DNA of 64,000 nucleotides from an uncultured bacterium (GTDB lineage: Bacteria > Patescibacteriota > Saccharimonadia > UBA4664 > SCTI01). The DNA lies in contig CAVRJJ010000001.1 in NCBI GenBank assembly GCA_963721685.1, positions 212,170 through 276,169 on the forward strand, in the 5' to 3' direction. The position numbers and the translations under genes were made by a program. The first letter of the stretch is position 1. Each line of letters opens with the position of its first letter. The notes under the pieces were generated by a model that made no database searches, was not told the DNA's origin, and was given only the letters and a program-made list of their open reading frames with translations. Positions 1-59,651 of this stretch are shown piece by piece.

Positions 1-290
1 GCATTCACCGATACCGACTTGCACGAACATTTAAAGGATCGTGAGATCAAAACCATTATTGTGGTAGGCGGCTATGGTTCTACTTGTGTACTTGCGACGG
101 CACTTATGGGTCAGATGTTTATGGTTATAACGTCTTCGTGCCAAAAGACTTGACCGCTGATTTAGACTCTGCTGATCCACGGGAAGATCCCTCGTCTCTG
201 TCCGGGAGTATTGAAGGCATTTGGATTAGTTTTTGGTTATACCCCGGAGTCTCCTGCAATTGCAAATACTTGGAAGGAAGCCGCTTCTAA
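1..290 (+). pseudogene. 3' fragment of an isochorismatase/cysteine-hydrolase-family gene (5' end outside window); frame switches from frame 1 (1..153) to frame 3 (84..290) at a GGG run near 108-112
   Basis: Frame-1 translation ...HLKDREIKTIIVVGGYGSTCVLATA fits the isochorismatase-like core (I.TLVV.G.....CV..TA). The downstream GY.V.V..D..A motif (SDVYGYNVFVPKDLTA) lies in the other frame. One extra G would join them. Confidence 0.3.
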
Positions 291-318
291 AATGTAGGTT
301 TAATTCTCGGTATAGGCG

Positions 319-348
319 TTTGCATTTATCGTCCTAATATGATATTAT
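319..348 (+). promoter_or_regulatory. sigma70-type promoter with extended -10 (TTTGCA/TTGCAT at 319..325, TGaTATTAT at 340..348) upstream of high-GC ORF 391..909
   Basis: Spacer of 17-18 nt. The TGn extended -10 is directly visible. A GGGAGAG RBS follows, 7 nt before the ATG. Confidence 0.4.
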
Positions 349-390
349 ATCGAAATCCGTTAACCACCCTCGTTCCTTAGGGAGAGTGCC

Positions 391-909
391 ATGCCCAATC
401 GACCCGAACGCCTCTGGATGTTGATGGACGTCACCGAACTGCCGCCTACGGCGGATCTGCCGACCTCGGACGCCGAGACCCGCTTCTTCAAGGGCGACAT
501 CGATGACCTGATGGCCTCTACTGGCTGGCTCACCGAGGATGACCTCATGGTCTTCCTTGAGAGCTACGACCAGCAGACTGGTCTCGACAACGAGACCGTC
601 GCGGCCAAGATGTTCAAGGCGTTCATGCGGTTCAACGACCGCGCAGCGACGCACAGTCCCGGCATGTCGTATGAGTTCCGCGAAGTCGTCGAAGACGAGC
701 GGGTTGCTCGGGGTCTGTCCGCAAGCCCGCGCTACGTGACAACCCGGCTGACCGTCAACACCGAGACCGAGTCGATCGCACGCGCGAGCGTCATCGACCT
801 CAGTCTCCAGCTCTCGGCAGTGGCCTGCTGGGTGCCGGACGGCAAGGCCGAGTACGCCAGGATCCTCCGCGACTGGGCGATCAGCCTCGAAGAGAAGGCT
901 GCCGTCTAG
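391..909 (+). CDS. hypothetical protein; foreign-composition (about 63% GC, very high GC3) ORF, cassette 1
   Basis: 172-aa ORF with a strong third-position G/C bias (ccc aat cga ccc gaa cgc ctc ...), unlike the flanking AT-rich host DNA. It has its own promoter, RBS and terminator hairpins. I recognise no protein family. Confidence 0.6.
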   Translation: MPNRPERLWMLMDVTELPPTADLPTSDAETRFFKGDIDDLMASTGWLTEDDLMVFLESYDQQTGLDNETVAAKMFKAFMRFNDRAATHSPGMSYEFREVVEDERVARGLSASPRYVTTRLTVNTETESIARASVIDLSLQLSAVACWVPDGKAEYARILRDWAISLEEKAAV

Positions 910-923
910 GCACATCACGTTCG

Positions 924-985
924 GACAGGCTCTCAGCATACCGGAGAGCCTGTCACAGCCCCGCGAGGCAGAGCCCTGCGGGGCT
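924..985 (+). terminator. two consecutive GC-rich hairpins (GACAGGCTCTC-loop-GAGAGCCTGTC at 924..954; AGCCCCGC-loop-GCGGGGCT at 957..985) 3' of ORF 391..909
   Basis: Perfect 11-bp and 8-bp inverted repeats are seen directly. No clear U-tract follows, so they may act as a terminator or an RNA-stability element. Confidence 0.4.
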
Positions 986-1005
986 AAATCATGCCATGGG
1001 CGTAT

Positions 1006-1047
1006 ACATAATTTGTTCGGATAACGTCCCATAGCCCCAGCCATACA
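1006..1047. repeat. conserved 42-bp junction motif ACATAATTTGTTCGGATAACGTCCCATAGCCCCAGCCATACA (copy 1)
   Basis: Near-identical copy at 3951..3992 (ACATAAATTGTTCGGATAACGTCCCATAACCCCAGCCATATA), 39/42 nt identical. Both lie immediately 3' of a high-GC cassette hairpin. Confidence 0.8.
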
Positions 1048-1144
1048 TTTTACATCTGTTAATATTTTTAGGGTAAGTGGGATTGCACAACTCTTTTACG
1101 ATTTCTAGTGAATATTTGTCTGGCCTACAGGTTATACTACATTA

Positions 1145-3235
1145 ATGATTCATAATAAATGGTTTCGCATATTGCTCCCATCAATACTTATAATTCTATG
1201 GCTGGGCTTAGGCTCGGCCGGTGGCCCTATCTTTGGCAAAATTTCTGAAGTCTCAACAAATGATCAAGCTGCATTCCTACCTGCTTCTGCAGAATCTACA
1301 CAGGTGCAGAAACTGCAAAGTAAATTCAATAATGGTCAGGCAATACCTGCAATCGTCATATTTGAATTTGATGAGCAGATAAATCCTGCTGAACTCCCAA
1401 CTTTTAATGCGCTTGGTGAAAAACTGAAAGTAGATGGCATTCAGCAAGTTATAGGTCCAATTCCATCAGATGATTTGATGGCGCTTGAATATATTGCCCC
1501 AGTGTCTAATGATAGCGTACTAAAAACAGTCATTAATGATTTACGCCAAGCTGCTGATAATAATTCACCAGACGGCGCAAAGACATTTGTTACAGGACCA
1601 GCAGGCTTAAGTGCGGACTTGTCTAAAGCATTTGAAGGTATCGACGGAATTTTGTTGGTAGTTGCCTTAGGTGCCGTGTTTATAATCTTGCTACTGGTAT
1701 ATCGTTCATTACTATTGCCTTTTCTCGTTTTGATCAATGCAATGCTCGCACTGTGTGCTGCAATCATTACGGTTTATTTGTTAGCCAAATACAACTTGAT
1801 TGAGCTAAATGGTCAAAGTCAGGGTATATTATCGATTCTCGTAATTGGTGCCGCTACTGATTACTCACTACTGCTTGTGTCCCGCTATAAGGAAGCGTTG
1901 AGCCGCACTAATGATAAATGGGAAACTATCGCATTTGGTATAAAAAGCTCGTTTGAACCGATTCTAGCATCAGCCGCAACAGTTGTTCTAGCACTACTTT
2001 GTCTATTGTTCTCGGATTTAAATTCAAACAAAAGTCTCGGCCCGATTGCTGCCACAGGGATAGCATTCTCGCTATTGGCAACACTCACATTCTTACCTGC
2101 TCTTCTTGCTACTTTTGGCAAAACAGCATTTTGGCCGAGTAAAATTGCCCAACCGGAGAATAAAAAGGCGGTAGCAATCAAGACAGGCCGTGAAGAACTT
2201 TCGGGTATTTGGAACAGGGTTGGAGGTTTAATAACAACTAATGCTCGTACTACATGGATCGTAATAACCGTACTACTGACGATGGCATCGCTCGGCCTCT
2301 TACAGCTAAGGGCTAGCGGAGTACCCCAGTCAGAATTAATTTTGTCACAATCAAACGCAGCCGATGGCCAAAAAGCAATCGCCCGTCACTTCGATGCCGG
2401 ATCTGGCGCCCCGGTAATTATTGCTAGCTCGCAAGCGTCTCAAAAGGGAGTAGTTAATATTCTTGAAACAAATGATAAATTAGCGATGCTCACGGCCTAC
2501 AGCGATCGTGGTCAAACTAATAACCTCAATGAGGCAAAAGTGATCGAAGGCAAAGTATTACTGAGTGCTACATTAAAAGAAGACCCGTACTCGGAGCAGG
2601 CCAGGTCGACTATTTTGTCGCTAAGAGATGAATTGAACCAAGTCGCTAGTGCTCAAGTTGGAGGTACTACTGCTATTGCAGCCGACACGAGCATTACCGC
2701 ACAACGTGATCTGAAATTAGTCGTACCATTAGTACTGCTCGTCATCTTTATAGTTTTAGCACTGCTGCTTCGGGCATTGCTTGCGCCTCTTATTTTGATT
2801 ATGACTGTAGTACTGAGTTTCGCCGCAACATTGGGCGTTTCTGCACTCATATTCAATAATATTTTAGAATTTCCGGGCGCTGACGCAACGGTACCTCTTT
2901 TCGGTTTTGTATTCTTGGTTGCATTAGGTGTAGATTACAATATTTTCTTAGTATCTCGTATAAGAGAGGAGACTTTTAAGTACGGTACACGTGCAGCGAC
3001 GCTCCATAGCTTAGGCAAAACTGGTGGAGTCATAACATCTGCAGGAGTAGTACTGGCCGCGACATTTGCCGCTCTTGGGATTATCCCGATTCTCTTTCTG
3101 GCGCAAATAGCATTTATAGTAGCCTTTGGCGTATTACTAGATACGGTTATCGTTCGGTCATTATTAGTACCGGCCTTATTTACAGATTTGGGCTCAAAAG
3201 TATGGTGGCCATCAATAATTTCTAAAGAAAAATAA
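1145..3235 (+). CDS. MMPL-family (RND superfamily) membrane transporter
   Basis: 696 aa, two blocks of about 6 TM helices separated by soluble domains, a typical MMPL layout. The gene is about 40% GC, lower than the rest of the window. Confidence 0.8.
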   Translation: MIHNKWFRILLPSILIILWLGLGSAGGPIFGKISEVSTNDQAAFLPASAESTQVQKLQSKFNNGQAIPAIVIFEFDEQINPAELPTFNALGEKLKVDGIQQVIGPIPSDDLMALEYIAPVSNDSVLKTVINDLRQAADNNSPDGAKTFVTGPAGLSADLSKAFEGIDGILLVVALGAVFIILLLVYRSLLLPFLVLINAMLALCAAIITVYLLAKYNLIELNGQSQGILSILVIGAATDYSLLLVSRYKEALSRTNDKWETIAFGIKSSFEPILASAATVVLALLCLLFSDLNSNKSLGPIAATGIAFSLLATLTFLPALLATFGKTAFWPSKIAQPENKKAVAIKTGREELSGIWNRVGGLITTNARTTWIVITVLLTMASLGLLQLRASGVPQSELILSQSNAADGQKAIARHFDAGSGAPVIIASSQASQKGVVNILETNDKLAMLTAYSDRGQTNNLNEAKVIEGKVLLSATLKEDPYSEQARSTILSLRDELNQVASAQVGGTTAIAADTSITAQRDLKLVVPLVLLVIFIVLALLLRALLAPLILIMTVVLSFAATLGVSALIFNNILEFPGADATVPLFGFVFLVALGVDYNIFLVSRIREETFKYGTRAATLHSLGKTGGVITSAGVVLAATFAALGIIPILFLAQIAFIVAFGVLLDTVIVRSLLVPALFTDLGSKVWWPSIISKEK

Positions 3236-3311
3236 ACACATAAGCTTAAAGTTTTATTGACTGAAATTAACAAATTCGGTTCTAACATCGTCTATGATAC
3301 TCAGCCAAGTA

Positions 3312-3340
3312 TTGACAGACCAATTGGCTTATGGTATTAT
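3312..3340 (+). promoter_or_regulatory. consensus sigma70-type promoter TTGACA(3312..3317)-N17-TGgTATTAT(3332..3340) upstream of high-GC ORF 3478..3864
   Basis: Perfect -35, 17-nt spacer and extended -10. The -10 overlaps the motif TATTATATATCGATCCG, which resembles TATTATATCGAAATCCG at 343..359. Confidence 0.45.
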
Positions 3341-3477
3341 ATATCGATCCGCCGCATGCAGTACTTATGTTGCTTGCGATAGCGGGGCTCATATTGAAGG
3401 TTAATGATATTGAGTGGTAGCAGTACTTCGGAAGGACCGCGGCGGAAACCGCAAACAACAACCGAAGGGAGTCCACC

Positions 3478-3864
3478 ATGGACACCAAGACCACGAAGAT
3501 CAGCAGCATCACAGGCGGGCGCAGTGCGACCGAAGAGACCACGAACATCACCGGGGTCATCATGGAGCACAGCGTTTCGGACGTGACGTTCAAGGACGTC
3601 ATCGGCCGGAGCATGCCCGACTGGCTAAACAAGCACGGCAAGGTGACGGTGACCGTTCGCGAGAACGGCGACCACAACCTCGTTGTGCTTGAGCTGGAAC
3701 TGACAGACATCAGGCTGTTGACGGAAGACGGCTGGAACAACTCCTTCAGCTATCGCGCGATTGTGCGCGGTGGCCCAAGGGACCGTATCGGCCAAACCGT
3801 CGACGGCAAGATCATCATGCAGTCAGCCGGAGGAACGTCCTTCGGCAACCTGCACGCGGCCTAG
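3478..3864 (+). CDS. hypothetical protein; foreign-composition high-GC/high-GC3 ORF, cassette 2
   Basis: 128-aa ORF with almost every codon ending in G/C, and AGGGAG-like RBS (GAAGGGAG) 8 nt upstream. No family recognised. Confidence 0.6.
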   Translation: MDTKTTKISSITGGRSATEETTNITGVIMEHSVSDVTFKDVIGRSMPDWLNKHGKVTVTVRENGDHNLVVLELELTDIRLLTEDGWNNSFSYRAIVRGGPRDRIGQTVDGKIIMQSAGGTSFGNLHAA

Positions 3865-3913
3865 CCGCAACCGCCCCCGGTTAGGGGATGAGCTCCGCAC
3901 CTACAAGATGAAG

Positions 3914-3948
3914 GAGACGTCCCCGGCAACGGGGGCGTCTCTCTTTCT
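3914..3948 (+). terminator. rho-independent-like terminator: GAGACGTCCCCG-GCAA-CGGGGGCGTCTC followed by TCTTTCT
   Basis: 12-bp stem with one mismatch and a GNRA-like loop, followed by a T-rich tract. Confidence 0.5.
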
Positions 3949-3950
3949 AC

Positions 3951-3992
3951 ACATAAATTGTTCGGATAACGTCCCATAACCCCAGCCATATA
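3951..3992. repeat. conserved 42-bp junction motif (copy 2)
   Basis: See 1006..1047. Confidence 0.8.
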
Positions 3993-4131
3993 GTTTTTGC
4001 TCAATATACATATTAAAATTTTCTTTCCCTCGCCTAAGGCATAACCGCTATTTTCTGTTGTTATGCTCGCTCCGGTTGGCTAAGCATATGCACTATACTG
4101 AACAAGTATCAAAATTTAAGGGAGAGTATAT

Positions 4132-5070
4132 ATGCATAGATTTATAGCAAAGCTAGCAACCACAGGAATAATAGTAGGGGCGCTGGCAGCACCAGCCATG
4201 GCCGCTAACTCAACAGTTGTTGTGACGCCTGCCAACTTGCAAGGATGGGCGCTCAACCGTGATGCCTCAACCTCGACACCGTATGAGTTTACCGAAGCAA
4301 AAGCCAGCATCGGCAACGGCAGTGTTTATGTGAAGCCAATCGGTGGTACCGTTGCGAAAGATAAGTTTATTGCTGAAAAGACATTAGGTTCACTCGCTTC
4401 AGAATTAAATTCTGTTGCATATGACTTTCTGATTGCCGGAAATGGAACAACCGCTAGTGCCAATCATTTTTACCTAAATGTGTACACCAATCTACCCGGA
4501 TCATCTACGTTCTATGATTGCCGATTTGATTACGTACCAACAGCAGGATCGACCTCTGCGTTCACTACCGCATCCTTCACGTCAACTTCAGCCGCGACAG
4601 CCGTAGGTGACCGAGCAGAAGATGGTTTTACCTGTCCTACTACTTGGGGCGCCATGCAGGCAGGAAGCACCATTAAGTTCATTGCGGTAAATGTGGGCGA
4701 CACCTCCCTGAGCGATGCAGGATTGGCTGGTTACCTAGACAAGGCCGTTATCAACTCAGGCGGTAACGTGACTACTTATGATTTCGAGCTAAGGAATGTC
4801 CCAACTAATGCTAACCAGTGTAAGAATGGCGGCTTCGCTAGCCTCACCAACAATAATGGTGTAGTTTTCAAAAACCAGGGCCAGTGCGTACAGTTCGTAA
4901 ACTCAAACCGATGGAGTAACTTCAATATTGTTTCGGTATTCAATACCGTAGTTCAGAAGGCAACATCGGGGAATGCCAACTCGTCATCCAACACTGTTGG
5001 CGGCAGCGCTACGAGCGGCAATGTTTCAAATACCAATAGCACCACAACAACTGTTAAAATCAAAAACTAA
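4132..5070 (+). CDS. secreted Ser/Thr/Asn-rich protein of unknown function with N-terminal signal peptide
   Basis: N-terminus MHRFIAKLATTGIIVGALAAPAMA-ANS is signal-peptide-like, the RBS is GGGAGAG, and a clean terminator follows. Confidence 0.55.
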   Translation: MHRFIAKLATTGIIVGALAAPAMAANSTVVVTPANLQGWALNRDASTSTPYEFTEAKASIGNGSVYVKPIGGTVAKDKFIAEKTLGSLASELNSVAYDFLIAGNGTTASANHFYLNVYTNLPGSSTFYDCRFDYVPTAGSTSAFTTASFTSTSAATAVGDRAEDGFTCPTTWGAMQAGSTIKFIAVNVGDTSLSDAGLAGYLDKAVINSGGNVTTYDFELRNVPTNANQCKNGGFASLTNNNGVVFKNQGQCVQFVNSNRWSNFNIVSVFNTVVQKATSGNANSSSNTVGGSATSGNVSNTNSTTTTVKIKN

Positions 5071-5092
5071 CCACCCAAAACTTAAATAAAAG

Positions 5093-5118
5093 AAAAAGCC
5101 GGCATTGGTCGGCTTTTT
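5093..5118 (+). terminator. rho-independent terminator AAAAAGCCG-gcattggt-CGGCTTTTT
   Basis: Perfect 9-bp stem including an A-tract and U-tract, so it may act in both directions. Confidence 0.7.
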
Positions 5119-5188
5119 CGCTGTCAATATAATTATCATTTAAACTAGAACGCCTCGCCGGAGCGAGGGCTCTAGCGAGACGTGGGGA

Positions 5189-5677
5189 TCAGATGACCCC
5201 GACGAGTTCTTCGAGTTCATCAAGGGAGAGGGAGAGGCGGCCGATGAAGTCGTCCCCCTCAACGATGTACTGCGCGCAGAGGCACCTCAGCCAATTGCTG
5301 TGGCGAGTATTACCTCTCTTGAGCTCATCAATCCACTGCTCGGCCCTGGCGGCTTCGCGCCAAAGCCAGAACTCCCTGATCTCATGGTGGTAGGAACCGA
5401 TCTCCTCGGGCCTAATGCCGTAACCGAGCTTTCTGGCGTCAGAAAGACGCGAGAGCTCGGGATGGATTGTCCGCCCGTAAAGGACGAAGGCGTGTGGTTC
5501 CAGGTTGCCCTGACGGCACTCGGCCAACGCCTTCCTGGCTTCAGCCTTGGCCTCCTGCATCAGCTCAGTGTCTTCGATCTTGGGAACCTCGTAGGTGAGG
5601 GCCACCGAAGCCCAGCCCGCCCCAGTCCTGGCAAGCTTTTTAAGCGCGCGAAATCGGGGGCGATTTTGCAATCCCAT
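5189..5677 (-). CDS. hypothetical protein; high-GC/high-GC3 ORF
   Basis: 162 aa. The minus-strand frame has about 75% G/C at third positions, while the overlapping plus-strand ORFs lack this bias. A CAGGAGCG RBS precedes the ATG. Confidence 0.5.
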   Translation of the reverse strand: MGLQNRPRFRALKKLARTGAGWASVALTYEVPKIEDTELMQEAKAEARKALAECRQGNLEPHAFVLYGRTIHPELSRLSDARKLGYGIRPEEIGSYHHEIREFWLWREAARAEQWIDELKRGNTRHSNWLRCLCAQYIVEGDDFIGRLSLSLDELEELVGVI

Positions 5678-5802
5678 AGGTGTACGCTCCTGGTAGACGA
5701 TTGATGATCACTACAGAGTTTATTTATTAAAGCATAAAGTGAACAATAAGTCCAGTTTGTACATGATAGCAAGTATCAGCGTCAAGGCCTATACTCACTT
5801 AT

Positions 5803-14985: not shown

Positions 14986-15894
14986 ATGAATAAATTTTTT
15001 AAGGTTTTAGTGGGATCGATACTAGGGTGCGGTTTAATAGGATTGATTGCCTATTTGCTGCAAACCGGGTCGATTGCCGTGCTTGATCCCCGAGGGCTTA
15101 TAGCGTCCGAGCAGTATCAATTAATGCTACTAACCACGCTGTTGATGCTGGTTATTGTGGTACCGGTTTTTGTAATGACTTTTGTTATTGCCTGGAAATA
15201 CCGCGCCAGCAACACCACTGCAACTTATTCACCAGACTGGGACCACAGCCGGCTGGCGGAAACGCTATGGTGGGCGATACCGTGTGTGATTATTGGGATA
15301 TTAGCAATTATCATCTGGAAGAGCAGTCATGACCTTGATCCGTTTAAGCCGCTTGTGTCAGACAAAAATCAACCCATTACCATTCAGGTGGTAGCCCTTC
15401 AATGGAAATGGTTGTTTATCTACCCGGAGCAGCAAATCGCCAGCGTAAATGAAGTCCGGTTTCCCGCGGATACTCCGGTCAACTTCAACATCACGGCAGA
15501 CGCCCCCATGAATTCCTTTTGGATTCCGCAGCTTGGAGGGCAAGTCTACGCGATGGCCGGGATGGAAACCCAATTGCACCTCATAGCCGACAACCCCGGC
15601 ACCTTTGCCGGATCATCAGCTAATTTAAGCGGAGCTGGCTTTGCTGATATGCGATTTGAAGCCAAGGCCACCTCACAAACGGATTTTGACCGGTGGGTAA
15701 AAGCAGTCAAAGAAAACGATCCAAATAAGTTTTTAAATAAACAAGCGTACGCAAAACTGGCAAAACCGGGCAAAGCAGAAATTCCAACTTCTTACGCCTC
15801 GGTAGCGGACGACATATACCGTAGCGCTATTATGAAGTATATGGCTCCCCAGACAGAAACTAACCCGCACCAAATGCATCCGGAGTCGCTATGA
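14986..15894 (+). CDS. cyoA: cytochrome o ubiquinol oxidase subunit II
   Basis: Lipobox-like ILGC, two TM helices and a cupredoxin fold (...[17 protein letters not shown]) that lacks CuA ligands, as in quinol oxidases. Confidence 0.85.
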
Positions 15895-17867
15895 GCCCAC
15901 TAGGACGGCTTGGCATAGATGATGTTATTCATGGGCCCATCGCGACGTTTGGTCAATTAAGCGTGATCCTGGGGGCCTTAACAGCCATTGGTCTGCTGTT
16001 TTATTTCAAACGATGGAAGTGGCTGTGGAAAGAATGGCTTACTTCCCTTGACCCGAAAAAGATTGGCGTCATGTACATCATAATCGCTTTCTTAATGTTG
16101 TTGCGCGGGGTTATGGACGCGGTTATGATGCGGGCACAACAAGCCTTATCGGTAGGGGACGCGAACGGCATTTTATCGTCAGACCATTTCCAGCAAGTGT
16201 TTTCCGCCCATGGCACGATAATGATTTTCTTTGTGGCGATGGGCTTAATGTTCGGGTTAATCAACCTGGTTGTCCCGCTGCAAATTGGCGCCCGCGATGT
16301 GGCCTTTCCGTTTTTAAACTCAGTGAGCTTCTGGCTGTTCGCCGCGGGCATGGCAATGGTAAATGTTTCATTAATAGTAGGGGAGTTTGCCGCGGCCGGA
16401 TGGTTGGCCTATCCGCCCCTGTCGGGGCTGGAATATAGCCCCGGGGTAGGGGTTGATTATTGGATATGGAGCTTGCAAATCGCGGGTGTGGGAAGCTTAC
16501 TGGCAGGCATTAATTTCCTGGTAACCATTATAAAAATGCGGGCACCTGGTATGACACTAATGAAAATGCCCTTGTTTACCTGGAGCGTGCTCTGCAGCAT
16601 GCTGCTTGTTGTGTTTGCCTTTCCTATTCTTACCGCCACGCTGGGCATGCTATCGCTCGACCGGCTAATGGGGATGCATTTTTTTACCTCCGACTTTGGG
16701 GGCAACCCCATGATGTACATTAACTTGATTTGGGCTTGGGGGCATCCGGAGGTTTATATCCTGATTCTGCCGGCGTTTGGAGTCTTCTCCGAGGTGGTCG
16801 CGACGTTTTCCAGCAAACGCTTATTCGGGTATGTGTCGATGGTGTGGGCGCTCGGGGCAATTACGGTGTTATCATTCCTTGTTTGGCTGCACCATTTTTT
16901 CACTATGGGAGCCGGAGCCAACGTCAACGCCTTTTTCGGAATCATGACAGCGGTGATTGCTGTTCCCACTGGCGTAAAGGTCTTCAACTGGCTATTTACG
17001 ATGTACCGCGGGCGCATTCGCTTTACCACTCCAATGTTGTGGTTTTTTGGATTTGTAGTGACTTTTACGATAGGCGGTATGGCCGGGGTATTAATGTCGG
17101 TACCAGCCATCGATTTCCAGGTACATAACAGCCTATTTCTGGTGGCCCACTTCCACACCATGGTAATTGGCGGGGTAGTCTTTGGTTTCTTTGCCGGTAT
17201 TACCTACTGGTTTCCCAAAATTTTTGGGTTCAAGCTCCATGAAAAGTTAGGAGTCTACGCATTCTGGTGCTGGATCATTGGTTTTTCAGCGGCCTTTATT
17301 CCACTTTATATCTTGGGCTTAATGGGGGCCACCAGGCGCCTCGACCACTATGACGCTTCATTAGGATGGCAGGGGCTTTTCATCGTTGCCGGAATTGGCG
17401 TAGCCATCATTTTGCTGGGCATTGGATTCCAAATTCTGCAAATGATTGTCAGTGTCTTGCAACGAAAGAAGAACCGCGACATTACCGGCGATCCTTGGGA
17501 TGGCCGAACCCTGGAGTGGGCAACCGCTTCGCCGGCACCGGTCTATAATTTCGCGGTTACTCCCGAGGTCCGTGATCGGGATCCGTTTTGGGTTTTGAAA
17601 CAATCCTCTGCAAATAAGACTATGCCAACCTACACCGATATAGTCCTCCCCAAAAACACGCCGATGGGACTGTATATCGCGGGGGCGGCGTTTATCATTG
17701 GGTTTGGGCTCATTTGGCATATTTGGTGGCTGGCAGCGGTGGGGTTGATTGGCATGCTTGCCTGTATTGTCTGGCGCTTAGCGGATGAAGCAACCGAATA
17801 TACTATTTCCGCTGCCACCATCGCGCAGCAAGAAGCACACCACGCCAAAAGGAAGGCCGCTCAATGA
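15891..17867 (+). CDS. cyoB: cytochrome o ubiquinol oxidase subunit I (heme-copper oxidase)
   Basis: 658 aa with conserved His ligands ([14 protein letters not shown]) and a GHPEVYIL motif. Confidence 0.95.
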
Positions 17868-18442
17868 CAAAAATCACCGCTCACGTTGAAGAATCAAAAA
17901 CTGTGCTAGGGTTTTGGGTTTACCTGATGACCGACTGTATCCTGTTCGCCAGCCTATTTGCTACCTACGCGGTTTTGCAAAACAACACCTTTGGCGGTCC
18001 GTCAGGTCAGGAATTGTTTAGCTTGCCTTTCGTGTTACTTGAAACGCTTATTTTACTTACCAGCAGCTTTACCTGCGGACTTGGATTACTGGCATCCCAT
18101 CGGGGCAAAAAAAACCAGGTAATGGCATGGTTTGGCGTAACCTTTTTGCTGGGGCTTGCATTTTTAGCTCTAGAACTTAGCGAGTTTAGCCACCTGGTAG
18201 CCGAAGGCAACAGCTGGCAACGCAGCGGCTTTTTATCGGCCTTTTTCACGTTGGTCGGAACACACGGACTTCACATTGCCACCGGCCTTATGTGGATTGT
18301 GGTTATGATGATTAGAGTGTGGCGTGGCGGTTTAACAACGGTGAATCTGCGCCGCTTAACCGTTTTAAGTTTGTTTTGGCACTTCCTCGATATCGTTTGG
18401 ATCTTTATTTTTACCTTTGTTTACTTGATGGGGGCGTTGTAA
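17864..18442 (+). CDS. cyoC: cytochrome o ubiquinol oxidase subunit III
   Basis: 5-TM subunit III pattern, overlapping cyoB by 4 nt. Confidence 0.85.
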
Positions 18443-18443
18443 G

Positions 18444-18818
18444 GTGGGCCACAAATCCTCAGCCCCGGGGAGTGGGCAGGGGTCAATAACTTCATACATG
18501 GTTGGGTTTTTCTTATCCCTCATCTTAACCTATGAAGCTTACCTTTTAGTCACTTACCACATCCTCAGCGACCGACTGCTGCTCGCGGCCGTGGTGGTAG
18601 CAGCGGTCATGCAGCTCGTGGTCCAACTAGTCTTTTTTCTTCATCTCGGTAGTGAGTCCAAACCTCGCTGGAACCTGATAGTATTTTTGTTTACCCTAAT
18701 GGTTCTGGTGATTTTAGTCTTTGGTTCACTCTGGATCATGCACAACCTAGACTACCACATGATGTCCCCGGTAGAAACGGATACGTATATTCAGCATGAA
18801 GAAGGGATTAAGAGATAG
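18444..18818 (+). CDS. cyoD: cytochrome o ubiquinol oxidase subunit IV
   Basis: 124 aa with 3 TM helices, positioned between cyoC and cyoE. Confidence 0.6.
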   Translation: MGHKSSAPGSGQGSITSYMVGFFLSLILTYEAYLLVTYHILSDRLLLAAVVVAAVMQLVVQLVFFLHLGSESKPRWNLIVFLFTLMVLVILVFGSLWIMHNLDYHMMSPVETDTYIQHEEGIKR

Positions 18819-18940
18819 CACGGTTAGCGCGTTACTACTGGCTGGTAAAGCCGGGGATTGTATACGGAAACAGCATAACCGCCAGTGCCGGCTACTTCTT
18901 AGCGGCGCAGGGGCGTCCTTCTCTCACGGTTTTTATTGCC

Positions 18941-19675
18941 ATGTTAGCGGGGATAGCTCTCGTCGTTGCCGCTGGTTGCGTTTTTAATAATATTCTCGAC
19001 CGCGCAATCGATAGCGCAATGGCAAGAACACGTACCCGAGCTTTAGTAAGCGGCACCATTAGCCCCAAGCAGGCCCTTAGCTATGGCTTAATGCTCGGCA
19101 CTATCGGATTGCTTATATTAGCGGTCGGTACCAATTTGCTAACAACCGCCCTGGCTTTGGCCGGCCTGGTGATATATGTGGCGGTGTATGGCTTTTGGAA
19201 GCGGCGTTCAGTGCATGGAACGCTAGTAGGAAGTCTGGCCGGGGCTGTTCCGCTGGTAGCCGGTTACTGCGCCGCTTCTAACCAATTTGATAGGGGGGCG
19301 TGGCTTTTATTTATTATCCTGGCGCTTTGGCAAATGCCCCACTTTTACGCGATTGCCATGTACCGTTTAGGCGACTACAAAGCCGCCAAACTCCCGGTTT
19401 TACCGGCGGTAAAAGGCATGAAAGCCACAAAGCGCTCGATATTGGGTTATATTTTAGCGTTTATCATTGCCACTTCAACCCTAACCGTCTTTGGCTACAC
19501 CGGATACAGTTTCGCGGGCGTTATGATAATCCTTGGCCTAGCCTGGTTTATAAAGGGTGTCCGCGGCTTGCACGTGGAAGATAACACGAAATGGGCACGT
19601 TCAATGTTTAGTTTTTCGTTAGTGGTTTTGATGAGCCTGTCAGTTATGCTGTCGGTTGGCGCGATACTGCCATAA
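18941..19675 (+). CDS. cyoE: protoheme IX farnesyltransferase (heme O synthase); conserved N-terminal region extends in frame to 18812 without an ATG/GTG/TTG
   Basis: UbiA-family motifs (NxxxDxxxD-like NNILDRAIDSAM, YxxxxxR). The in-frame upstream translation ...ARYYWLVKPGIVYGNSITASAGYFLAAQG matches CyoE/CtaB N-termini. Confidence 0.8.
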   Translation: MLAGIALVVAAGCVFNNILDRAIDSAMARTRTRALVSGTISPKQALSYGLMLGTIGLLILAVGTNLLTTALALAGLVIYVAVYGFWKRRSVHGTLVGSLAGAVPLVAGYCAASNQFDRGAWLLFIILALWQMPHFYAIAMYRLGDYKAAKLPVLPAVKGMKATKRSILGYILAFIIATSTLTVFGYTGYSFAGVMIILGLAWFIKGVRGLHVEDNTKWARSMFSFSLVVLMSLSVMLSVGAILP

Positions 19676-22039: not shown

Positions 22040-22192
22040 CGCCATTTGGACGCGGCGGTGTATACTTCTAAGTACCATCGTTGAGGTGGTAGGTAGACGA
22101 CAGAAATGCCCCTACCGCAAAAAGGAGCCCGTTAAACGGCTTCCTTTTTGTTTTTACGATGTGCTTGAAATATTCACGGATTAGTTCATAGA

Positions 22193-22222
22193 TTGACAAG
22201 TACCATAATAATATGTTATTAT
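22193..22222 (+). promoter_or_regulatory. sigma70-type promoter TTGACA(22193..22198)-N18-TGtTATTAT(22214..22222) upstream of high-GC ORF 22320..22748
   Basis: Same -35/extended -10 pattern as at 319..348 and 3312..3340. Confidence 0.4.
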
Positions 22223-22319
22223 CTCACAAACCAAAAAGGAGCAAAAAACAGTTGTAAACTGCTTATGCCTCAAGTAGTGTAAGGGCAAGGACCTACAACG
22301 ATGGGGAGTTCTTTACCAC

Positions 22320-22748
22320 ATGCCAGTACCAGCGACATCGCCGCTACGGCTCGTCACCGCGAGCCATCCTGCCGTACCAGCCGAACGGCCGCGTCTCAGA
22401 GCTGTACCTGATGCAACCGATGTGACGGCTTTCGATCTCGAGGAGCTCGACCTTGAAGGGGCGGAAGTCGCCTTCGCCGAGATCTACCGCGCATACCTGC
22501 TGTACTTCGGTCCCACCGACGCCAGCCAGCGTCTCGAAGACCTCCGCTTGGAGTTCAGCCTCGGGTTCACGCCCCTGGACGATCTTCTCGAGCAGAACCG
22601 GGCCCTCATCGACGGCCTGAGTCAGGGCATGGGCAACCAGCTCACGGCAGGCTCCAAGTGCAATCCGCTCATGACGCCGGGATCCACATTCCTCAGCGCA
22701 CCGCGGAGCACGGGACGTCGCGACGAGCTCGAGCCGCTCATCGCCTGA
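22320..22748 (+). CDS. hypothetical protein; foreign-composition high-GC ORF (cassette 3)
   Basis: 142 aa, acidic and Leu/Asp/Glu-rich, with strong GC3 bias. No family recognised. Confidence 0.5.
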   Translation: MPVPATSPLRLVTASHPAVPAERPRLRAVPDATDVTAFDLEELDLEGAEVAFAEIYRAYLLYFGPTDASQRLEDLRLEFSLGFTPLDDLLEQNRALIDGLSQGMGNQLTAGSKCNPLMTPGSTFLSAPRSTGRRDELEPLIA

Positions 22749-22764
22749 CGGCACTTCCTGGTTC

Positions 22765-22857
22765 GCCGCCTCCTAATTGCAATCGGATTCGTTCCGATCA
22801 TTAGGAGGCGGCGCAACCGCGGCACCTCTCTTAGCAGCTACGAAAAGGAGGGGTGCC
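22765..22857. terminator. long perfect hairpin GCCGCCTCCTAAT-(22 nt)-ATTAGGAGGCGGC (22765..22812) plus a second imperfect hairpin (22821..22857) between convergent genes
   Basis: 13-bp perfect stem seen directly. Likely a bidirectional terminator for ORF 22320 (+) and cfa (-). Confidence 0.5.
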
Positions 22858-22873
22858 TTCCTCCTGGAATCAT

Positions 22874-24055
22874 TTAAGCTTTATACAAGAATTCCCGGGT
22901 GAGCGGCAAGTCGTTATTAATCCCTTTAGTAAAAACCATTTGTGACAAGTCATTAATGCCATGGCGGAAGGACGCGCTGGAACCTGCTAAGTATAGCCGC
23001 CACATTCGAATAAAGCGCTCATCATACATTTTAGTAATTTTCGGCACATGCTTTTCAAAGCGACGTGACCACTCGTCCAAGGTCATAGCGTAATGAATTC
23101 GCAAATTTTCATAATCGGTAAGGCGGAAATTATAGTTTGGCAATAACGACAGGATCTCCCGGGTGCTGGGGATGTAGCCGCCGGGGAAAATGTACTTATC
23201 AATCCAGGGGGAGGTGCCAACTTCGGTTTGCTGGGTAATGGAATGCAGCGCCGAAACACCGCCCGGCTTTAATAGCCCGTCAACTACGTTAAAATAGTGC
23301 CGGTGATTACCGCGCCCAACATGCTCCAAGATTCCCACGCTCACAACTCGGTCATATTGCTTGGTGGCGGGCAAAAGATCCTGATAATTAATATTTTTAA
23401 AGGTTGCCAGGTCGGCGACGCCTTCTTTTTTAGCAAGTTCGGTCGCGAACTCATACTGTTCGCGGCTTAGCGTCACGCCTAAGCCCTTGGCACCGTAGTG
23501 CTTAGCCGCCCGCACCACCAAATGCCCCCAACCGCACCCAAGATCAACAAACTCATGGCCTGGCTGCAACTGAAGCTTACGCAGCACGTGGTCGATCTTT
23601 TGGCGTTGGGCTTGCTCTAAGCTATCTGTGGGGGTGCGGAAATAAGCACAGGTATAGGTCATAGTGTCATCAAGCCACAGCTTATAAAAATCATTCCCCA
23701 GATCGTAGTGGCTTTGAATTAATTTCTTTTGGTTTTGTCGGACATTCTTATTGGGACGGTACACGCGCAACTTGCCTAAGAATGAGTCTACCAGCGTTTG
23801 GTTCTGGTTAATAATTTTTAGCAAGTCGTCCAATCTACCGGTGCGAAATTCAATCCGCCCGTCCATATAGGCCTCTCCAAAGCCTAAATCAGATTTACGC
23901 ACGAGCTCACCGGCGACCTTGGGGTCTTTCAGCAACAAGCTAACAGTTGGCTTGCCGCGACCATAGGTTTGGCGCTCTTCACCCCAATAATCTATCTCAA
24001 GGGCGCCCGTTGTAAAGCTGCCCAAGACCTTGCCCAGTAGCGTTTTTGCTATCAT
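22874..24055 (-). CDS. cfa: cyclopropane-fatty-acyl-phospholipid synthase family methyltransferase
   Basis: SAM-binding VDLGCGWG, LGFGEAYMDG near the N-terminus and YFRTPTDSLEQAQ. The start is set at the internal ATG (24055) to give a canonical length and avoid antisense overlap with the next gene. The longest ORF starts at 24196. Confidence 0.8.
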   Translation of the reverse strand: MIAKTLLGKVLGSFTTGALEIDYWGEERQTYGRGKPTVSLLLKDPKVAGELVRKSDLGFGEAYMDGRIEFRTGRLDDLLKIINQNQTLVDSFLGKLRVYRPNKNVRQNQKKLIQSHYDLGNDFYKLWLDDTMTYTCAYFRTPTDSLEQAQRQKIDHVLRKLQLQPGHEFVDLGCGWGHLVVRAAKHYGAKGLGVTLSREQYEFATELAKKEGVADLATFKNINYQDLLPATKQYDRVVSVGILEHVGRGNHRHYFNVVDGLLKPGGVSALHSITQQTEVGTSPWIDKYIFPGGYIPSTREILSLLPNYNFRLTDYENLRIHYAMTLDEWSRRFEKHVPKITKMYDERFIRMWRLYLAGSSASFRHGINDLSQMVFTKGINNDLPLTREFLYKA

Positions 24056-29915: not shown

Positions 29916-30495
29916 CGTCAGCGTTCATACGTATTAAACGGGAGGCCGGGGCAGTAACGGTTCCGCCATCAACATATCCATCAACCTGGTCTCCAAAGTA
30001 TGCTTGGGCTTCGTTAAGGTTTGTGGCCGGTGGCAGGCCTTCCGGATTGGCGCTGGGCGCTATCAACGGGCCGGTTTGAGTAAGCAGTGTTTTCAAGTCG
30101 AACTTATGTGGCAATCGAAACGCTAAACTAAAGCTGCCGCGGTGCAGAAAGCCAAGGTCAGAATCGGGACAGGGCAGGACGACACTGGTTGGTCCGGGCC
30201 ACAACTCATCTAGGACCCGGTGGATAGCGGGGTTAACCGCTACAGAAAACTTTTTTAATTCAGCTACATCCGCGATTAAAATAATCGGCGGTTTTTCCGG
30301 ACTCCTTTGTTTCAAAGCGTAAACTCGTTCAACCGCATCTGGTTTAAGCGCGCTCGCCGCCGCGCCATAAATCGTATCGGTTGGCATTACAACTACGCCG
30401 CCATTTATGATAACGTTAACAACTTCTTGGTAAGATGAATAAATGGAAGACACAATAATTACCAGTATATGCTTGGGATAGACTTTTACAATCAA
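29890..30495 (-). CDS. tsaC: L-threonylcarbamoyladenylate synthase, YrdC/TsaC family
   Basis: MPTDTIYGAAASAL...ILIADV has the YrdC fold signature. Confidence 0.8.
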   Translation of the reverse strand: MIVKVYPKHILVIIVSSIYSSYQEVVNVIINGGVVVMPTDTIYGAAASALKPDAVERVYALKQRSPEKPPIILIADVAELKKFSVAVNPAIHRVLDELWPGPTSVVLPCPDSDLGFLHRGSFSLAFRLPHKFDLKTLLTQTGPLIAPSANPEGLPPATNLNEAQAYFGDQVDGYVDGGTVTAPASRLIRMNADATYEVLRP

Positions 30496-31154
30496 GATAA
30501 CCTGACGGTAGCCAAAGCCTTATTGGGCTGCGAGCTGGTCTATAACCCGCCTAATGGAGAACCAATTGGTGGGCGAATTGTGGAAACCGAAGCCTATGGC
30601 CAAGACGACGAAGCCAGCCACTCGTTTAGAGGACTCACCAAGCGCAATGCGATCATGTTTGGTCCAGGCGGCTACGCCTACGTGTATTTCACTTATGGGA
30701 TTCACTATTGTTTTAACGTAGTGGTGGGCCAACCGGCTACGCTGAAGCAGTTCTTATTCGCGCGCTGGAGCCCACCAGAGCCATCGCGACCATGGAACGC
30801 AACCGACGCACCACCGACCGCCATAATCTTTGCAGCGGGCCGGGGAAGCTGGTTCAGGCCTTAGGCTTAGGCTTAGAACATAACGGCGCCAGCCTAGTGT
30901 CACCTGAATTGCATATACTTAAGCGGTCCGCGCTTCCCCAAATAGTTGCCGGACCACGAGTGGGCATTAGCCGAGCGATTGATAAACCTTGGCGATTTAT
31001 GGTTGCCGGTAGTCCATGGATCACGAAACACAAGCTCAATAACGCCGCCCGGGAGATTCACGTCGTGACCCCACGCTTAAAGCGCAGCTTATTACCTTGG
31101 TTGTCTCTTAGCGCTTTCCGTCTTGGGGTGGGTATTAACCAAGAGGGAGGGTAG
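30469..31154 (+). pseudogene. mpg: DNA-3-methyladenine glycosylase (Mpg/AAG family) split by a 1-nt frameshift near 30721-30745 (ORFs 30469..30864 and 30792..31154)
   Basis: The first ORF carries ...ETEAYGQDDEASHSFRG...GIHYCFNVV. The rest (AVLIRALEP...LCSGPGKL...PRVGISRAIDKPWRF) continues in the +1 frame. Confidence 0.75.
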
Positions 31155-39100: not shown

Positions 39101-40141
39101 CAGGTGAAGTCATGACCCGGTTGCCGGTACCAGAGGTGGCTACTGCCACAAACAAGCCGTTGCCGTAAGTAACGGAGTTCCAGTTGTTATCCGCCGCGGA
39201 AGTTCGGGAGTCCAGGTGGTACCATCAGGTGAAGTCATGACCCGGTTGCCGGTACCAGAGGTGGCTACTGCCACAAACAAGCCGTTGCCGTAAGTAACGG
39301 AGTTCCAGTTGTTATCCGCCGCGGGGGTATTGCGTGAAATCCAGTTAACCCCAGCAGTTCTTTCCTCTTGACCAAACCAACGATGTGAAGCTTGTGTATA
39401 ATCGGCGTTTTGAGAATATGTCACTGCCGCATAAACTGAGGCAATTCGAACATCATCATCTTGGGCAGATGGCCCCCCAGAACCCAGCCGATTGCGGGTT
39501 ATTTGAACTTGCATGCTGTCAAGATCGCTTTGAGTCCAGGTGCCGTTGAAGGTTACAGCCGAACACCACGCCCAGGTGTTGAAGGCTGGTGTACAGGTAC
39601 CTGCAGTCTGTAACGTTCCATTTATACGTAAATTTATACTTAAAGAATCTAGTGTACTACCATTGGCATTGGTAGCACTTTGGGCATGCACATTTATGCT
39701 GACCTGAGACACTGATAGTACATTAGAGGCATTGGTTAAACCGAATTCCTCCACCTCACCTCCGGATCCCGCGGTACCTGTGCCTATATAATCGGCCGTA
39801 TTGGCAGTTGCTCCTTCATCCACATGATCACAATGAGGTCCGCCAGAACACGTAGAATCGTTAGTGCCAACCACATTGGGCCAATCAGACGTAATGTCAA
39901 AGCTTGGAACAATATTGCTAGTGGCGGCGTAAACGGGAGTTTGGAACATCACAATTGTTCCCGCCAGCAAAGACAAAATAAATACAATTGCGGGTACTTT
40001 ACTCCGAGAGAGCTTGGCTAACTTGAAGCTTGGTGGTGTTCGCTTTCGTGTTGACCTTAGCCGCCTCAATATTGGCAATAGCACATTGCGTTGCTTTTTC
40101 CTTTGATGCTTTGGGGCACTGTTTTGGATGGGAATTATCAT
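36127..40141 (-). CDS. giant BNR/Asp-box repeat surface protein (about 1338 aa if corrected), currently split into three ORFs by two 1-nt frameshifts in G-runs (about 38185 and about 39207)
   Basis: At least 30 tandem 40-aa units of VMTSPDG(I/T)TWTPRTSAADN.W.SVTYGNGLFVAVA..GTGNR containing the S-x-D-x-G-x-T-W Asp-box. An N-terminal signal anchor is present. Confidence 0.7.
38970..39330. repeat. three near-identical 120-bp tandem copies (one 40-aa BNR unit each); the middle copy differs only by one G fewer in a G-run
   Basis: Identity at the DNA level, seen by direct comparison of 38971..39090, 39091..39209 and 39210..39325. Confidence 0.8.
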
Positions 40142-45327: not shown

Positions 45328-45477
45328 ACTAGCTTTTTACTCCTTTGTGTTTGCTCACACCAAACTGCAGCTAACTACAGTGAGATGTAGCTTAAAGTAT
45401 AGTGCTTATGCTTAAGCATTACAAGGCGGTTATGCTTATTTTAGTGTTGGGTTTTTAATATAAAAAACGACTATTTG

Positions 45478-47670: not shown

Positions 47671-47682
47671 AAGATATGAATG

Positions 47683-59585: not shown

Positions 59586-59651
59586 TTGTTACACCCTTAA
59601 TTAGTAGCAATAATCCACCCCAAACAGTTTTATTTGGTTTAGTATCCCGAG

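Follow-up and report, generated by a model that had tools for sequence, protein, structure and literature searches.

Region 3300-3950 of the window, the 64-kb stretch of DNA that was analyzed, contains a single-gene transcription unit built around a small orphan gene, ORF2, and the anatomy of this unit, from promoter through leader and coding region to terminator, is conserved on four other metagenome contigs. The 49-nt repeat at its 3' end is a separate, rare element, independent of the unit and not a built-in cassette boundary. An earlier sequence-only reading had treated this unit (cassette 2) and another on the far side of an MMPL gene (cassette 1) as modules of a possibly mobile system with a common insertion site. 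What stands of that proposal is an autonomous, conserved unit found in different neighborhoods, with a tiny, patchy protein family and atypical composition; what falls is the repeat as its boundary. What the locus offers is a well-documented orphan gene unit next to a conserved repeat that still lacks an explanation; it does not demonstrate a mobile-cassette system. Our favored account, an autonomous moron-like ORF2 unit with a separate repeat that is most likely an att-type junction remnant, is a tentative one, whose chances we place a little short of even. Feature coordinates are collected in Table 1.

Table 1. Features of the ORF2 unit, cassette 1 and the sequence between them, in window coordinates
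Feature	Position	Strand	Remarks
Cassette 1	319..985	+	Promoter-like site 319-348; ORF1 391-909; GC-rich hairpins 924-954 and 957-985
49-nt repeat, copy 1	1003..1051	+	3' of cassette 1, 94 nt upstream of the MMPL gene
MMPL/RND transporter gene	1145..3235	+	GC 0.43; lies between the two repeat copies
Putative sigma-70 type promoter of cassette 2	3312..3340	+	TTGACA, 17-nt spacer, TG-extended -10 TATTAT
Conserved 5' leader, ~130 nt	3347..3477	+	Start inferred ~7 nt after the -10 box
Helix P1, 5' strand	3348..3355	+	TCCGCCGC; pairs with 3439-3446, 8 nt, 100% complementary
Leader box, 11 nt	3382..3392	+	GCGGGGCTCAT; complementary to the 3'-UTR box
Helix P1, 3' strand	3439..3446	+	GCGGCGGA; 31 nt upstream of the start codon
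ORF2	3478..3864	+	128 aa, GC 0.60, GC3 0.84; orphan-family member
3'-UTR box	3888..3898	+	ATGAGCTCCGC; reverse complement of the leader box
Intrinsic-terminator-like hairpin and T-rich run	3914..3950 (hairpin 3914-3941)	+	T-run TCTCTTTCT
49-nt repeat, copy 2	3948..3996	+	Core TTGTTCGGATAACGTCCCATAACCCCAGCCA at 3958-3988

Anatomy of the ORF2 unit

The promoter, the 137 nt separating it from the start codon, the GC3-rich ORF and the 3' hairpin that had been described from the letters alone were all recovered at their coordinates. The promoter matches the consensus at 11 of 12 positions, has TG upstream of the -10 hexamer and is the top promoter-like site within the first 6 kb; from these features it is presumed to be active. 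An A/C-rich stretch and a strong Shine-Dalgarno sequence lie upstream of the ORF2 start. GC content of the ORF is well above the 0.506 of the whole window, and codon substitutions relative to its homologs are most numerous at position 3 and fewest at position 2, which is a coding signal. The arms of the 3' hairpin, GAGACGTCCCCG/CGGGGGCGTCTC (3914-3925 and 3930-3941), are 92% complementary and are followed by the T-rich run; the fold is more stable than shuffled sequences (z = -3.8). Promoter and intrinsic terminator, as judged from sequence, bracket a single gene, and the arrangement is kept in the homologous loci. The unit lies between the MMPL gene and, at 4132, a gene for a 312-aa protein. 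Window neighbors that also include glycoside hydrolase, peroxiredoxin and oxidase genes indicate an ordinary chromosome and not a prophage.

Recurrence of the unit and its protein family

The four contigs on which the unit recurs from promoter to terminator are L001, L002, L016 and L017. The -10 block (TATG-N-TA..AT) is kept in alignments of all four, and terminator hairpins with T-runs stand at the equivalent place in each; leader blocks and the Shine-Dalgarno sequence are likewise common to L001, L002 and L016, and L017 has the same layout. At least two further genomic contexts are represented. In L001 the unit is found between a gene for a PAS/HisKA histidine kinase and one for an IMS-domain (DinB-type) polymerase, an order with which L002 looks syntenic by reading, and in L016 three small genes precede it.

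ORF2 belongs to an orphan family of about nine small proteins with no known domain, 108-128 aa in length and hydrophilic as read from sequence. A word-index search of 5.8 billion returned three proteins, and seven genuine small members were found among 1.84 billion representatives. GC3 is 0.74-0.85 in three members on contigs whose overall GC is 0.49-0.51, and the composition of the unit is atypical for its hosts. This high GC3 has persisted through 45-59% amino-acid divergence. Pfam, NCBIfam, PHROG and PADLOC returned nothing above threshold for ORF1, ORF2 or the other GC-rich ORFs, and a PDB sequence search gave nothing meaningful (best E = 0.29). AlphaFold2 models have pLDDT values of 48.5 for ORF2 and 44.8 for ORF1, which do not support a fold search; the low-confidence ORF2 model has four strands and one helix. 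Viral, phage and plasmid collections hold no relative of either ORF and no copy of the repeat, and a literature search found no description of gene units of this kind.

The leader and its pairings

A covariance model of the leader (R1) gives 89-120 bits for the window, L001, L002 and L016 and has no score elsewhere in the 165 kb scanned, so it reveals no further leader copies there. Neither leader nor repeat matches Rfam at the gathering threshold, and positions 250-5800 have no match at E <= 1. Helix P1, of 8-10 bp, occurs at the equivalent position in all five leaders. L001, L002 and L016 carry U·G variants; in L017 the helix is ACTGTCACC/GGTGACAGT, with six of nine pairs changed on both sides. 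P1 is backed by covariation, namely one fully compensatory variant together with the G·U variants. Individual shuffles matched the P1 helices in 0.8-5% of trials, the helix is absent from the pairings predicted in full-length transcript folds, and the leader by itself is no more stable than shuffled sequence (z = 0.18).

The leader box and the 3'-UTR box are present as a pair in four loci and lost jointly in L017. L001, L002 and L016 have the leader box in the form GCGGAGCTCAT. Box-to-box pairing reaches a probability of 0.95-0.99 in three of four full-length transcript folds. The variants seen in the boxes are three wobbles plus an A·C mismatch, with zero compensatory changes, so that RNA pairing is indistinguishable here from a DNA inverted repeat. 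A general comparison of 5'-UTR/3'-UTR duplexes across all GC-rich units gave no informative signal. A search of the genome collection with the leader pattern matched twice only, in MAGs of Phycisphaerales and Thermogutta; as no relative of ORF2 is encoded at either locus, both matches were rejected as chance.

These observations suggest how region 3300-3950 would function as an autonomous transcription unit, complete with a single gene, in a soil-type Candidatus Saccharimonadales chromosome. A strong extended -10 promoter would fire about 7 nt upstream of the conserved leader. Over its first 8-9 nt the leader would pair at long range, as helix P1, with a stretch lying 31-49 nt ahead of the start codon, while the internal 11-nt box could base-pair with the reverse-complementary box of the 3' UTR. 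Beyond the A/C-rich stretch and Shine-Dalgarno sequence, the transcript would run through the 128-aa GC3-rich ORF to the intrinsic terminator. We infer that leader and end-to-end pairing may lend the mRNA stability or control its translation so that expression is high. In this account the whole unit would pass on as a single block, by inheritance or by transfer, much as a phage "moron" does.

Cassette 1 and other GC-rich units

ORF1 of cassette 1 encodes 172 aa at a GC3 of 0.84, and its sole homolog is P0125 on L015, with 77% identity. Homology between L015 and cassette 1 begins at the ATG and includes the first 3' hairpin arm, and the 5' flank is unrelated. A resemblance between cassettes 1 and 2 around the -10, noted previously, is real but short: TATG-N-TATTAT, six nucleotides, then ATCCG. 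Other GC-rich units in the window, all without the repeat, lie at 5189-5677 on the minus strand, 22320-22748 and 62437-62996. The MMPL transporter has its closest relatives among actinobacterial genes, and its relatives at 67-70% identity are non-syntenic, with different neighbors in each genome, which leaves no definable empty site for comparison.

The 49-nt repeat

The two 42-bp motifs reported earlier do agree at 39 of 42 positions, and the match extends to 49 nt at 90% identity, in the same orientation and 2945 bp apart in a repeat search. Each copy stands 7-20 nt from the last hairpin after ORF1 or ORF2. The window contains exactly two occurrences of the 21-nt core TTGTTCGGATAACGTCCCATA, while none of 100 shuffles contained any match, and the repeat has only these two copies in 64 kb. 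A metagenome scan found three more, on L005, L006 and L007, with unrelated flanks. Across window and metagenome copies the invariant core is 24-31 nt, of the form TTGTTCGGATAACGTCCCATAGCC with a CCAGCCA-type tail and sharp edges. The core has no match in the genome collection, and the repeat is absent from L008-L014, from about 100 kb of sequence from related genomes and from the 3' UTRs of L001 and L002 as searched with nhmmer; the L005 non-coding region has no Rfam match. With two copies in 64 kb and no palindrome, it does not qualify as a REP or MITE.

No consistent fold and no attC-like hairpin were found on either strand. Fold z-scores of the three metagenome copies range from -0.75 to +1.26, the structure predicted at the window copies stems from the adjoining terminators, and 3948-3996 holds neither an inverted repeat nor a palindrome. 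The sole GTT in the core is GTTCGGA, with C at an R position. A minus-strand frame, ATG GGA CGT TAT CCG AAC AA (MGRYPN), was rejected as coding because conservation stops after seven codons and synonymous variation is lacking.

Several features hint at a tRNA-associated attachment site. The direct repeats bracket a block, MMPL plus ORF2, of deviating GC (0.43 and 0.60, against 0.51 for the window). A 12-nt stretch of the repeat, GCCCCAGCCATA, exactly matches a tRNA-Gln of L007, comprising its last 10 nt and the first 2 nt of trailer; none of 2000 shuffles reached such a match, which is post hoc and from another genome. L005 and L007 contain further tRNA-end-like repeats (GGCCAGCCAWAGCACTTAT) between single genes. 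Neither window copy has an intact tRNA beside it, the only tRNA of the window being tRNA-Leu at 49.5 kb. A tRNA-like fold of the repeat itself was considered and rejected, as T-arm positions are unpaired and ARAGORN found nothing there. Pfam detected no integrase or recombinase among 48 window ORFs, including every long ORF at 1-36 kb, and the bracketed block holds only MMPL and ORF2. The repeat most likely marks places where accessory DNA has recombined, and would be an att-type remnant akin to the 3' end of tRNA-Gln. On this reading cassettes 1 and 2 would have it in common through adjoining junctions of one kind, and neither would itself carry it.

Alternative explanations

An integron-like system, in which the GC-rich ORFs are mobile cassettes and the 42/49-nt 3' motif is the site of a dedicated recombinase, would account for two unrelated GC-rich ORFs each followed by the repeat, for the short promoter/ATCCG module on their 5' sides and for a Logan contig of run ERR12037361 that starts near window position 1007, where repeat copy 1 has its left edge. 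This reading is not supported, and we consider it improbable. All four homologous ORF2 units and the three other GC-rich window units lack the repeat, so the proposed conserved 3' boundary does not hold; the 5' flank of the ORF1 homolog is unrelated; the L007 copy sits between divergent OmdA/YdeI-type genes of ordinary GC, with no high-GC ORF in front; and the repeat has no internal inverted repeat, stable fold or GTTRRRY core. No integrase was found among the scanned ORFs, and, in contrast to typical integron cassettes, the units have promoters of their own. The repeat did not prove to be a common intergenic sequence, which would have spoken against any such role; since it is rare, it may still serve as a recombination site of another kind. 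One such possibility, as doubtful as the integron itself, is an undescribed Saccharimonadales cassette exchange with a promoter/ATCCG left arm and a tRNA-Gln-like right arm of 31-nt core, which would install self-expressing, GC-rich orphan genes at defined sites of the chromosome with no linked integrase. It could rely on a trans-acting recombinase or on competence, with exchange taking place across short homology arms; a possible source of the orphan genes is the mobilome of high-GC actinobacterial hosts, and the mRNAs of these genes would close on themselves by 5'-3' pairing.

Somewhat less improbable, though still unlikely, is that the 35-49-nt element is a cis-regulatory site of the gene downstream, whether operator, upstream promoter element or RNA-processing signal. 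Four of five copies have a plus-strand transcription unit 60-140 nt downstream (MMPL at 1145, the exported-looking 312-aa product at 4132, an OmdA/YdeI-type gene in L007 and a promoter-driven GC-rich region in L005), and a 24-nt core invariant across genomes, with sharp edges, is what a protein-binding site would show. The downstream genes, however, are functionally unrelated, L006 has its next gene on the other strand, neither a palindromic nor a repeated half-site can be made out, and the element is not found near MMPL genes of related genomes. Fainter is the case for a phase-variable switch, with the boxes at 3382-3392 and 3888-3898 as DNA inverted repeats across which an invertase flips the ORF relative to a fixed promoter. 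The boxes are indeed perfect or near-perfect inverted repeats that bracket the ORF and leave the promoter outside, and their joint retention and joint loss would fit, but no recombinase gene is nearby, all five assembled copies are in the ON orientation, 11 bp is short for known invertons, and three of four variants are G·U-compatible on the sense strand, slightly favoring RNA. An artifact, with GC-rich islands as assembly chimeras or contaminating high-GC reads and the repeat as a product of assembly, is suggested by the sharp change in composition and by short-read assemblies of this region, which are fragmented. Independent assemblies effectively refute it: the AT-rich promoter is joined identically to the GC-rich body of the unit in five of them, an independent Logan contig has ORF2, MMPL and the 312-aa gene together, and the repeat is present in three other assemblies.

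Comparison with known systems

Among the closest counterparts of the ORF2 unit is the phage moron, likewise a single gene with a sigma-70 promoter and factor-independent terminator, of deviating GC, patchy in distribution and inserted between unrelated genes. The ORF2 unit differs in residing in an ordinary chromosome rather than a prophage, in having no relatives in phage or viral collections and in its long, conserved, structured leader. Because it recurs in different contexts without the repeat, it reads as a moron-like, horizontally moving gene; such mobility is suggested by patchiness and context.

Integron cassettes are comparable in that unrelated small ORFs are followed by a common short sequence in one orientation. 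Here, in contrast, an attC-type imperfect hairpin is lacking, as are IntI, attI and a cassette array, and homologous units elsewhere do without the site. With integrative elements that target tRNA genes the locus has in common 49-nt direct repeats around a 2.9-kb block of deviating GC, a repeat tail identical to a tRNA-Gln end and its trailer, and, in L007, arrays of tRNA-end-like repeats between single genes. Unlike those elements, the block has no integrase and no intact tRNA at either end, and the tRNA-like part is limited to 12 nt, the remainder of the core lacking a T-arm fold. The complementarity of boxes recalls hok-type mRNAs, short transcripts in which conserved long-range complementarity likewise connects the leader with the 3' UTR; the hydrophilic ORF2 protein, at 108-128 aa, differs from a small hydrophobic toxin, and there is no sign of an antisense RNA gene.

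The Saccharimonadales live as ultra-small epibionts and have reduced genomes; to our knowledge, little is established about their acquisition and expression of accessory genes. Their chromosomes carry small, self-sufficient gene units of strongly deviating codon composition, and in at least one such family a structured leader and leader-to-3'-UTR complementarity have been retained across genomes. Should the leader prove functional, it would be a new cis-regulatory RNA for the phylum; should the 31-nt-core element prove to be a recombination site, it would provide a handle on the entry of accessory DNA, including the actinobacterial-like MMPL transporter. As a minor observation, and a lead only, the short words GTTCGGAT and CCCCAGCC are common to the repeat and the 3' UTR of the ORF2 homolog in L001.

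Cassette 2 and the ORF2 family

Cassette 2, the unit at about 3300-3950, contains every item that the sequence-only reading had listed for it, namely promoter, ORF, hairpin and adjoining repeat, and that observation is confirmed as correct and non-random. The promoter-like site is the top-scoring one within the first 6 kb of the window, ORF2 is GC-rich in a window of overall GC 0.506, and the hairpin segment with its T-run folds far better than shuffled sequences (z = -3.8).

Features in and around cassette 2, elsewhere in the window, and helix P1 at the homologous loci
Feature	Location	Strand	Details
49-nt repeat, copy 1	1003-1051		
MMPL/RND transporter gene (Pfam)	1145-3235		between repeat copies
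Promoter-like site	3312-3340		TTGACA-17 nt-TATTAT, TG before -10; score 11/12
P1, window	3348-3355 / 3439-3446		TCCGCCGC / GCGGCGGA (5' / 3' strand)
P1, L001 and L016			ATCCGTCGC / GCGGCGGAT; one U·G pair
P1, L002			ATCCGCTGC / GCGGCGGAT; one U·G pair
P1, L017			ACTGTCACC / GGTGACAGT; same place, 6/9 pairs changed on both sides
Leader box	3382-3392		GCGGRGCTCAT
ORF2	3478-3864		128 aa; GC 0.60, GC3 0.84
3'-UTR box	3888-3898		reverse complement of leader box
Hairpin	3914-3941		GAGACGTCCCCG/CGGGGGCGTCTC, then T-rich run
49-nt repeat, copy 2	3948-3996		
GC-rich orphan unit	5189-5677 (span 5139-5704)	minus	promoter/GC-rich body/hairpin, no motif
GC-rich orphan unit	22320-22748 (span 22190-22880)	plus	promoter/GC-rich body/hairpin, no motif
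GC-rich orphan unit	62437-62996 (span 62360-63070)	plus	promoter/GC-rich body/hairpin, no motif
Haem-copper oxidase operon, complete	14986-19675		COX2, COX1, COX3, COX4_pro, UbiA-type prenyltransferase
Methylpurine-DNA glycosylase gene; sortase gene	30469-31154; 49727-50903		each split into 2 ORFs
Very large ORFs	36127-49445	minus	up to 1728 aa; 126-, 129-, 150-nt tandem repeats
GluRS-DUF3048 gene pair	58203-60967		PEGA-domain gene nearby

A word-index search of 5.8 billion proteins returned only two relatives of ORF2. A profile search run exhaustively over 1.84 billion representatives returned seven genuine members, each 108-128 aa, plus two matches rejected as spurious repeat proteins; with window ORF2 and P0002, the family comes to about nine. 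No family library searched recognises it. DNA was compared at four loci, on metagenome contigs L001, L002, L016 and L017. In all four, an extended -10 box of the same type (TATG-N-TA..AT) and a leader of 130-160 nt with a strong Shine-Dalgarno sequence precede the gene, and a GC-rich hairpin carrying a T-run comes after it. Substitutions among the copies are commonest at codon position 3 and rarest at position 2, which marks ORF2 as a real gene under purifying selection. GC3 is 0.74-0.85 on contigs of GC 0.49-0.51 (window copy, L001, L002), and the AT-rich promoter is joined to the GC-rich body identically in independent assemblies, which rules out chimerism.

The gene's surroundings differ. 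It lies between the MMPL gene and a gene for a 312-aa protein in the window, between a PAS/HisKA histidine-kinase gene and an IMS (DinB-type polymerase) gene on L001, with which L002 is apparently syntenic judging from its upstream sequence, and downstream of three small genes on L016. These comparisons argue for a conserved, autonomous, modular unit, and cassette 2 has probably moved horizontally. The proposal of a modular, possibly mobile cassette was thus partly right: conservation at four loci with differing neighbors upholds the modular unit, and the repeat as its boundary falls away. The GluRS-DUF3048 pair is common to the window and L001 (8955-11797), which identifies the two as related Saccharimonadales genomes; despite this, their ORF2-family genes occupy different positions.

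The moron genes of phages likewise have their own promoter and terminator, deviant composition and patchy distribution, but the ORF2 unit lies outside any prophage, and no relatives were found in phage and viral collections.

Predicted leader pairings

A modest novelty here is the orphan gene family itself, whose conserved leader had not been described before and shows complementarity to the 3' UTR. The putative helix P1 would join the opening 8-9 nucleotides of the transcript, counted after a 6-nt spacer from the -10 box, to a complementary stretch located 31-49 nt ahead of the start codon. Single-sequence shuffles reach such helices in 0.8-5% of trials; positional agreement across five loci is the stronger argument. 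Because the leader alone is no more stable than shuffled sequence, and the 5' strand of P1 takes other partners in full-length folds, the evidence for P1 is comparative rather than thermodynamic.

The leader box and its complement, which lies about 25-45 nt beyond the stop codon, both occur in the window, L001, L002 and L016; L017 has neither. Full-length folding predicts that they pair with probability 0.95-0.99 in three of these four loci. Of the four variants, three are G·U wobbles and the fourth is an A·C mismatch; compensatory changes are absent, and pairing in RNA is only weakly favored over an inverted repeat acting in the DNA. Run over 165 kb, a covariance model built on the leader found only the four loci with both boxes, and Rfam gave no match. 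Such functions as we infer, here and for the ORF2 unit and the repeat, are conditional: the 5' helix and the pairing of the two ends would serve to protect or gate an mRNA that is strongly expressed, and the ribosome-binding site would stay open thanks to the A/C-rich stretch that separates P1 from the Shine-Dalgarno sequence. The 5'-3' complementarity recalls fold-back inhibition in hok-type mRNAs, but the ORF2 protein is no small toxin.

The 49-nt repeat

The two copies of the repeat are 90% identical over 49 nt; a search of the window finds its 21-nt core exactly twice, and none of 100 shuffles had any match. The sequence-only reading took this motif for the 3' boundary of a cassette. It is absent from all four homologous ORF2 units (a profile search concurs for L001 and L002) and from three other GC-rich units of the window. 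Nor was it found in the surroundings of MMPL genes from related Saccharimonadales (about 100 kb), in the genome collection or in viral contigs. A metagenome scan added three copies to the window's two, on contigs L005, L006 and L007. It is no common intergenic repeat. Neither does a high-GC ORF regularly precede it: the L007 copy (2081-2123) is flanked by a divergent pair of OmdA/YdeI-type genes whose composition is ordinary, the L006 copy adjoins an AadA_C fragment, and the L005 copy has a degenerate second copy before it and a promoter-driven GC-rich region after it. All five share an invariant TTGTTCGGATAACGTCCCATA, continued by the same GCC in four; a CCAGCCA-like tail follows the core, and similarity ends abruptly on both sides. 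On sequence grounds we regard the repeat as a separate element and not a cassette boundary; as a rare conserved element, with its 31-nt core and tRNA-Gln-like tail, it is again modestly novel.

The motif is not palindromic and has no consistent fold on either strand, and it does not fold as a tRNA T-arm. Coding on the minus strand (ATG GGA CGT TAT CCG AAC AA) was rejected because conservation stops after seven codons without synonymous variation. An integron-like system is not supported: the motif has neither attC structure nor the GTTRRRY core, no integrase occurs among the scanned ORFs, and the site does not travel with the cassette.

We prefer to read the repeat as an att-type junction. Its last 12 nt (GCCCCAGCCATA) exactly reproduce the 3' end of the L007 tRNA-Gln and the two trailer bases next to it, a match noticed post hoc and reached in 0 of 2000 shuffles. 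Shorter repeats, GGCCAGCCAWAGCACTTAT, with single genes between them, occur in L007, downstream of that tRNA, and in L005. The window copies are direct repeats bracketing exactly the MMPL gene (GC 0.43) and ORF2 (0.60), both deviating from the window's 0.51. Site-specific insertions made one after another at the 3' end of a tRNA leave just this pattern, and it resembles tRNA-targeting integrative elements in its direct repeats and tRNA-like tail. Unlike those elements, the window has no integrase and no intact tRNA beside the repeat; a Pfam scan of 48 ORFs showed no domain of integrase, transposase or phage type in any of them. The main alternative, a regulatory site for downstream genes, draws on the start of a plus-strand unit 60-140 nt downstream in four of the five copies.

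On L007 (205-2125), downstream of the tRNA-Gln (205-279), single genes alternate with repeats of the tRNA's 3' end and trailer, GGCCAGCCAWAGCACTTATGC (at about 620 and 1450), ahead of the long motif; several genes are split by frameshifts, and the array looks like serial insertions at the tRNA 3' end. On L005 (about 1270-1860, minus strand), a TTGACG-17-TAACAT promoter right after the motif leads into about 580 nt of GC-rich sequence, without reading frame or 3-base periodicity, closed by a repeat, CCAGC..GGCCAAGACACTTAT, and a terminator. This stretch is a candidate for a non-coding RNA, unmatched in Rfam.

Other GC-rich units and the neighborhood

ORF1, in cassette 1 (319-985), has one homolog, 77% identical, on contig L015. 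Upstream of the homolog's ATG the sequences are unrelated, and the contig stops short of the motif position. The 5' likeness seen between cassettes 1 and 2 is real (TATG-N-TATTAT, 6 nt, ATCCG) and too short to decide its meaning: it may be a shared promoter module or the strong-promoter consensus of this genome. ATCCG begins the P1 strand in the ORF2 family; cassette 1 has no partner strand, and the L015 homolog lacks the whole block. The three other GC-rich units (GC about 0.59-0.62) each bear an extended -10 promoter of their own and, at the 3' side, GC-rich hairpins, the last encoding two small ORFs, the second hydrophobic-looking. Four ORFs looked up from them are singletons at 90% identity in a 15-billion-protein collection. 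A set of GC3-rich orphan genes, self-expressing to judge from their signals, is modestly novel for a Saccharimonadales chromosome.

The closest relatives of the MMPL protein (65-73% identity) come from metagenome contigs; those named Candidatus Saccharimonadales are more distant (55-58%), and the nearest named ones beyond Saccharimonadales contigs are from Leifsonia and other Microbacteriaceae (about 59%), which would fit an exchange of genes by these epibionts with actinobacterial hosts. The gene's GC is well under the window mean, and its neighbors differ in every related genome examined. A 4164-nt Logan contig (run ERR12037361) carries MMPL, ORF2 and the 312-aa gene; its ends coincide with the left border of motif copy 1 (about 1007) and with the 3' hairpin of the 5189-5677 unit (about 5170), breaks that may stem from differences between strains at those junctions or just from low coverage.

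The remaining window is ordinary chromosome, with glycosyltransferases, an ABC transporter, the cytochrome oxidase operon, an amylase, and genes for PEP carboxylase, glutamate dehydrogenase, MreB and GluRS. The split glycosylase and sortase genes are either pseudogenes or frameshift errors, and the very large repeat ORFs presumably encode surface proteins.
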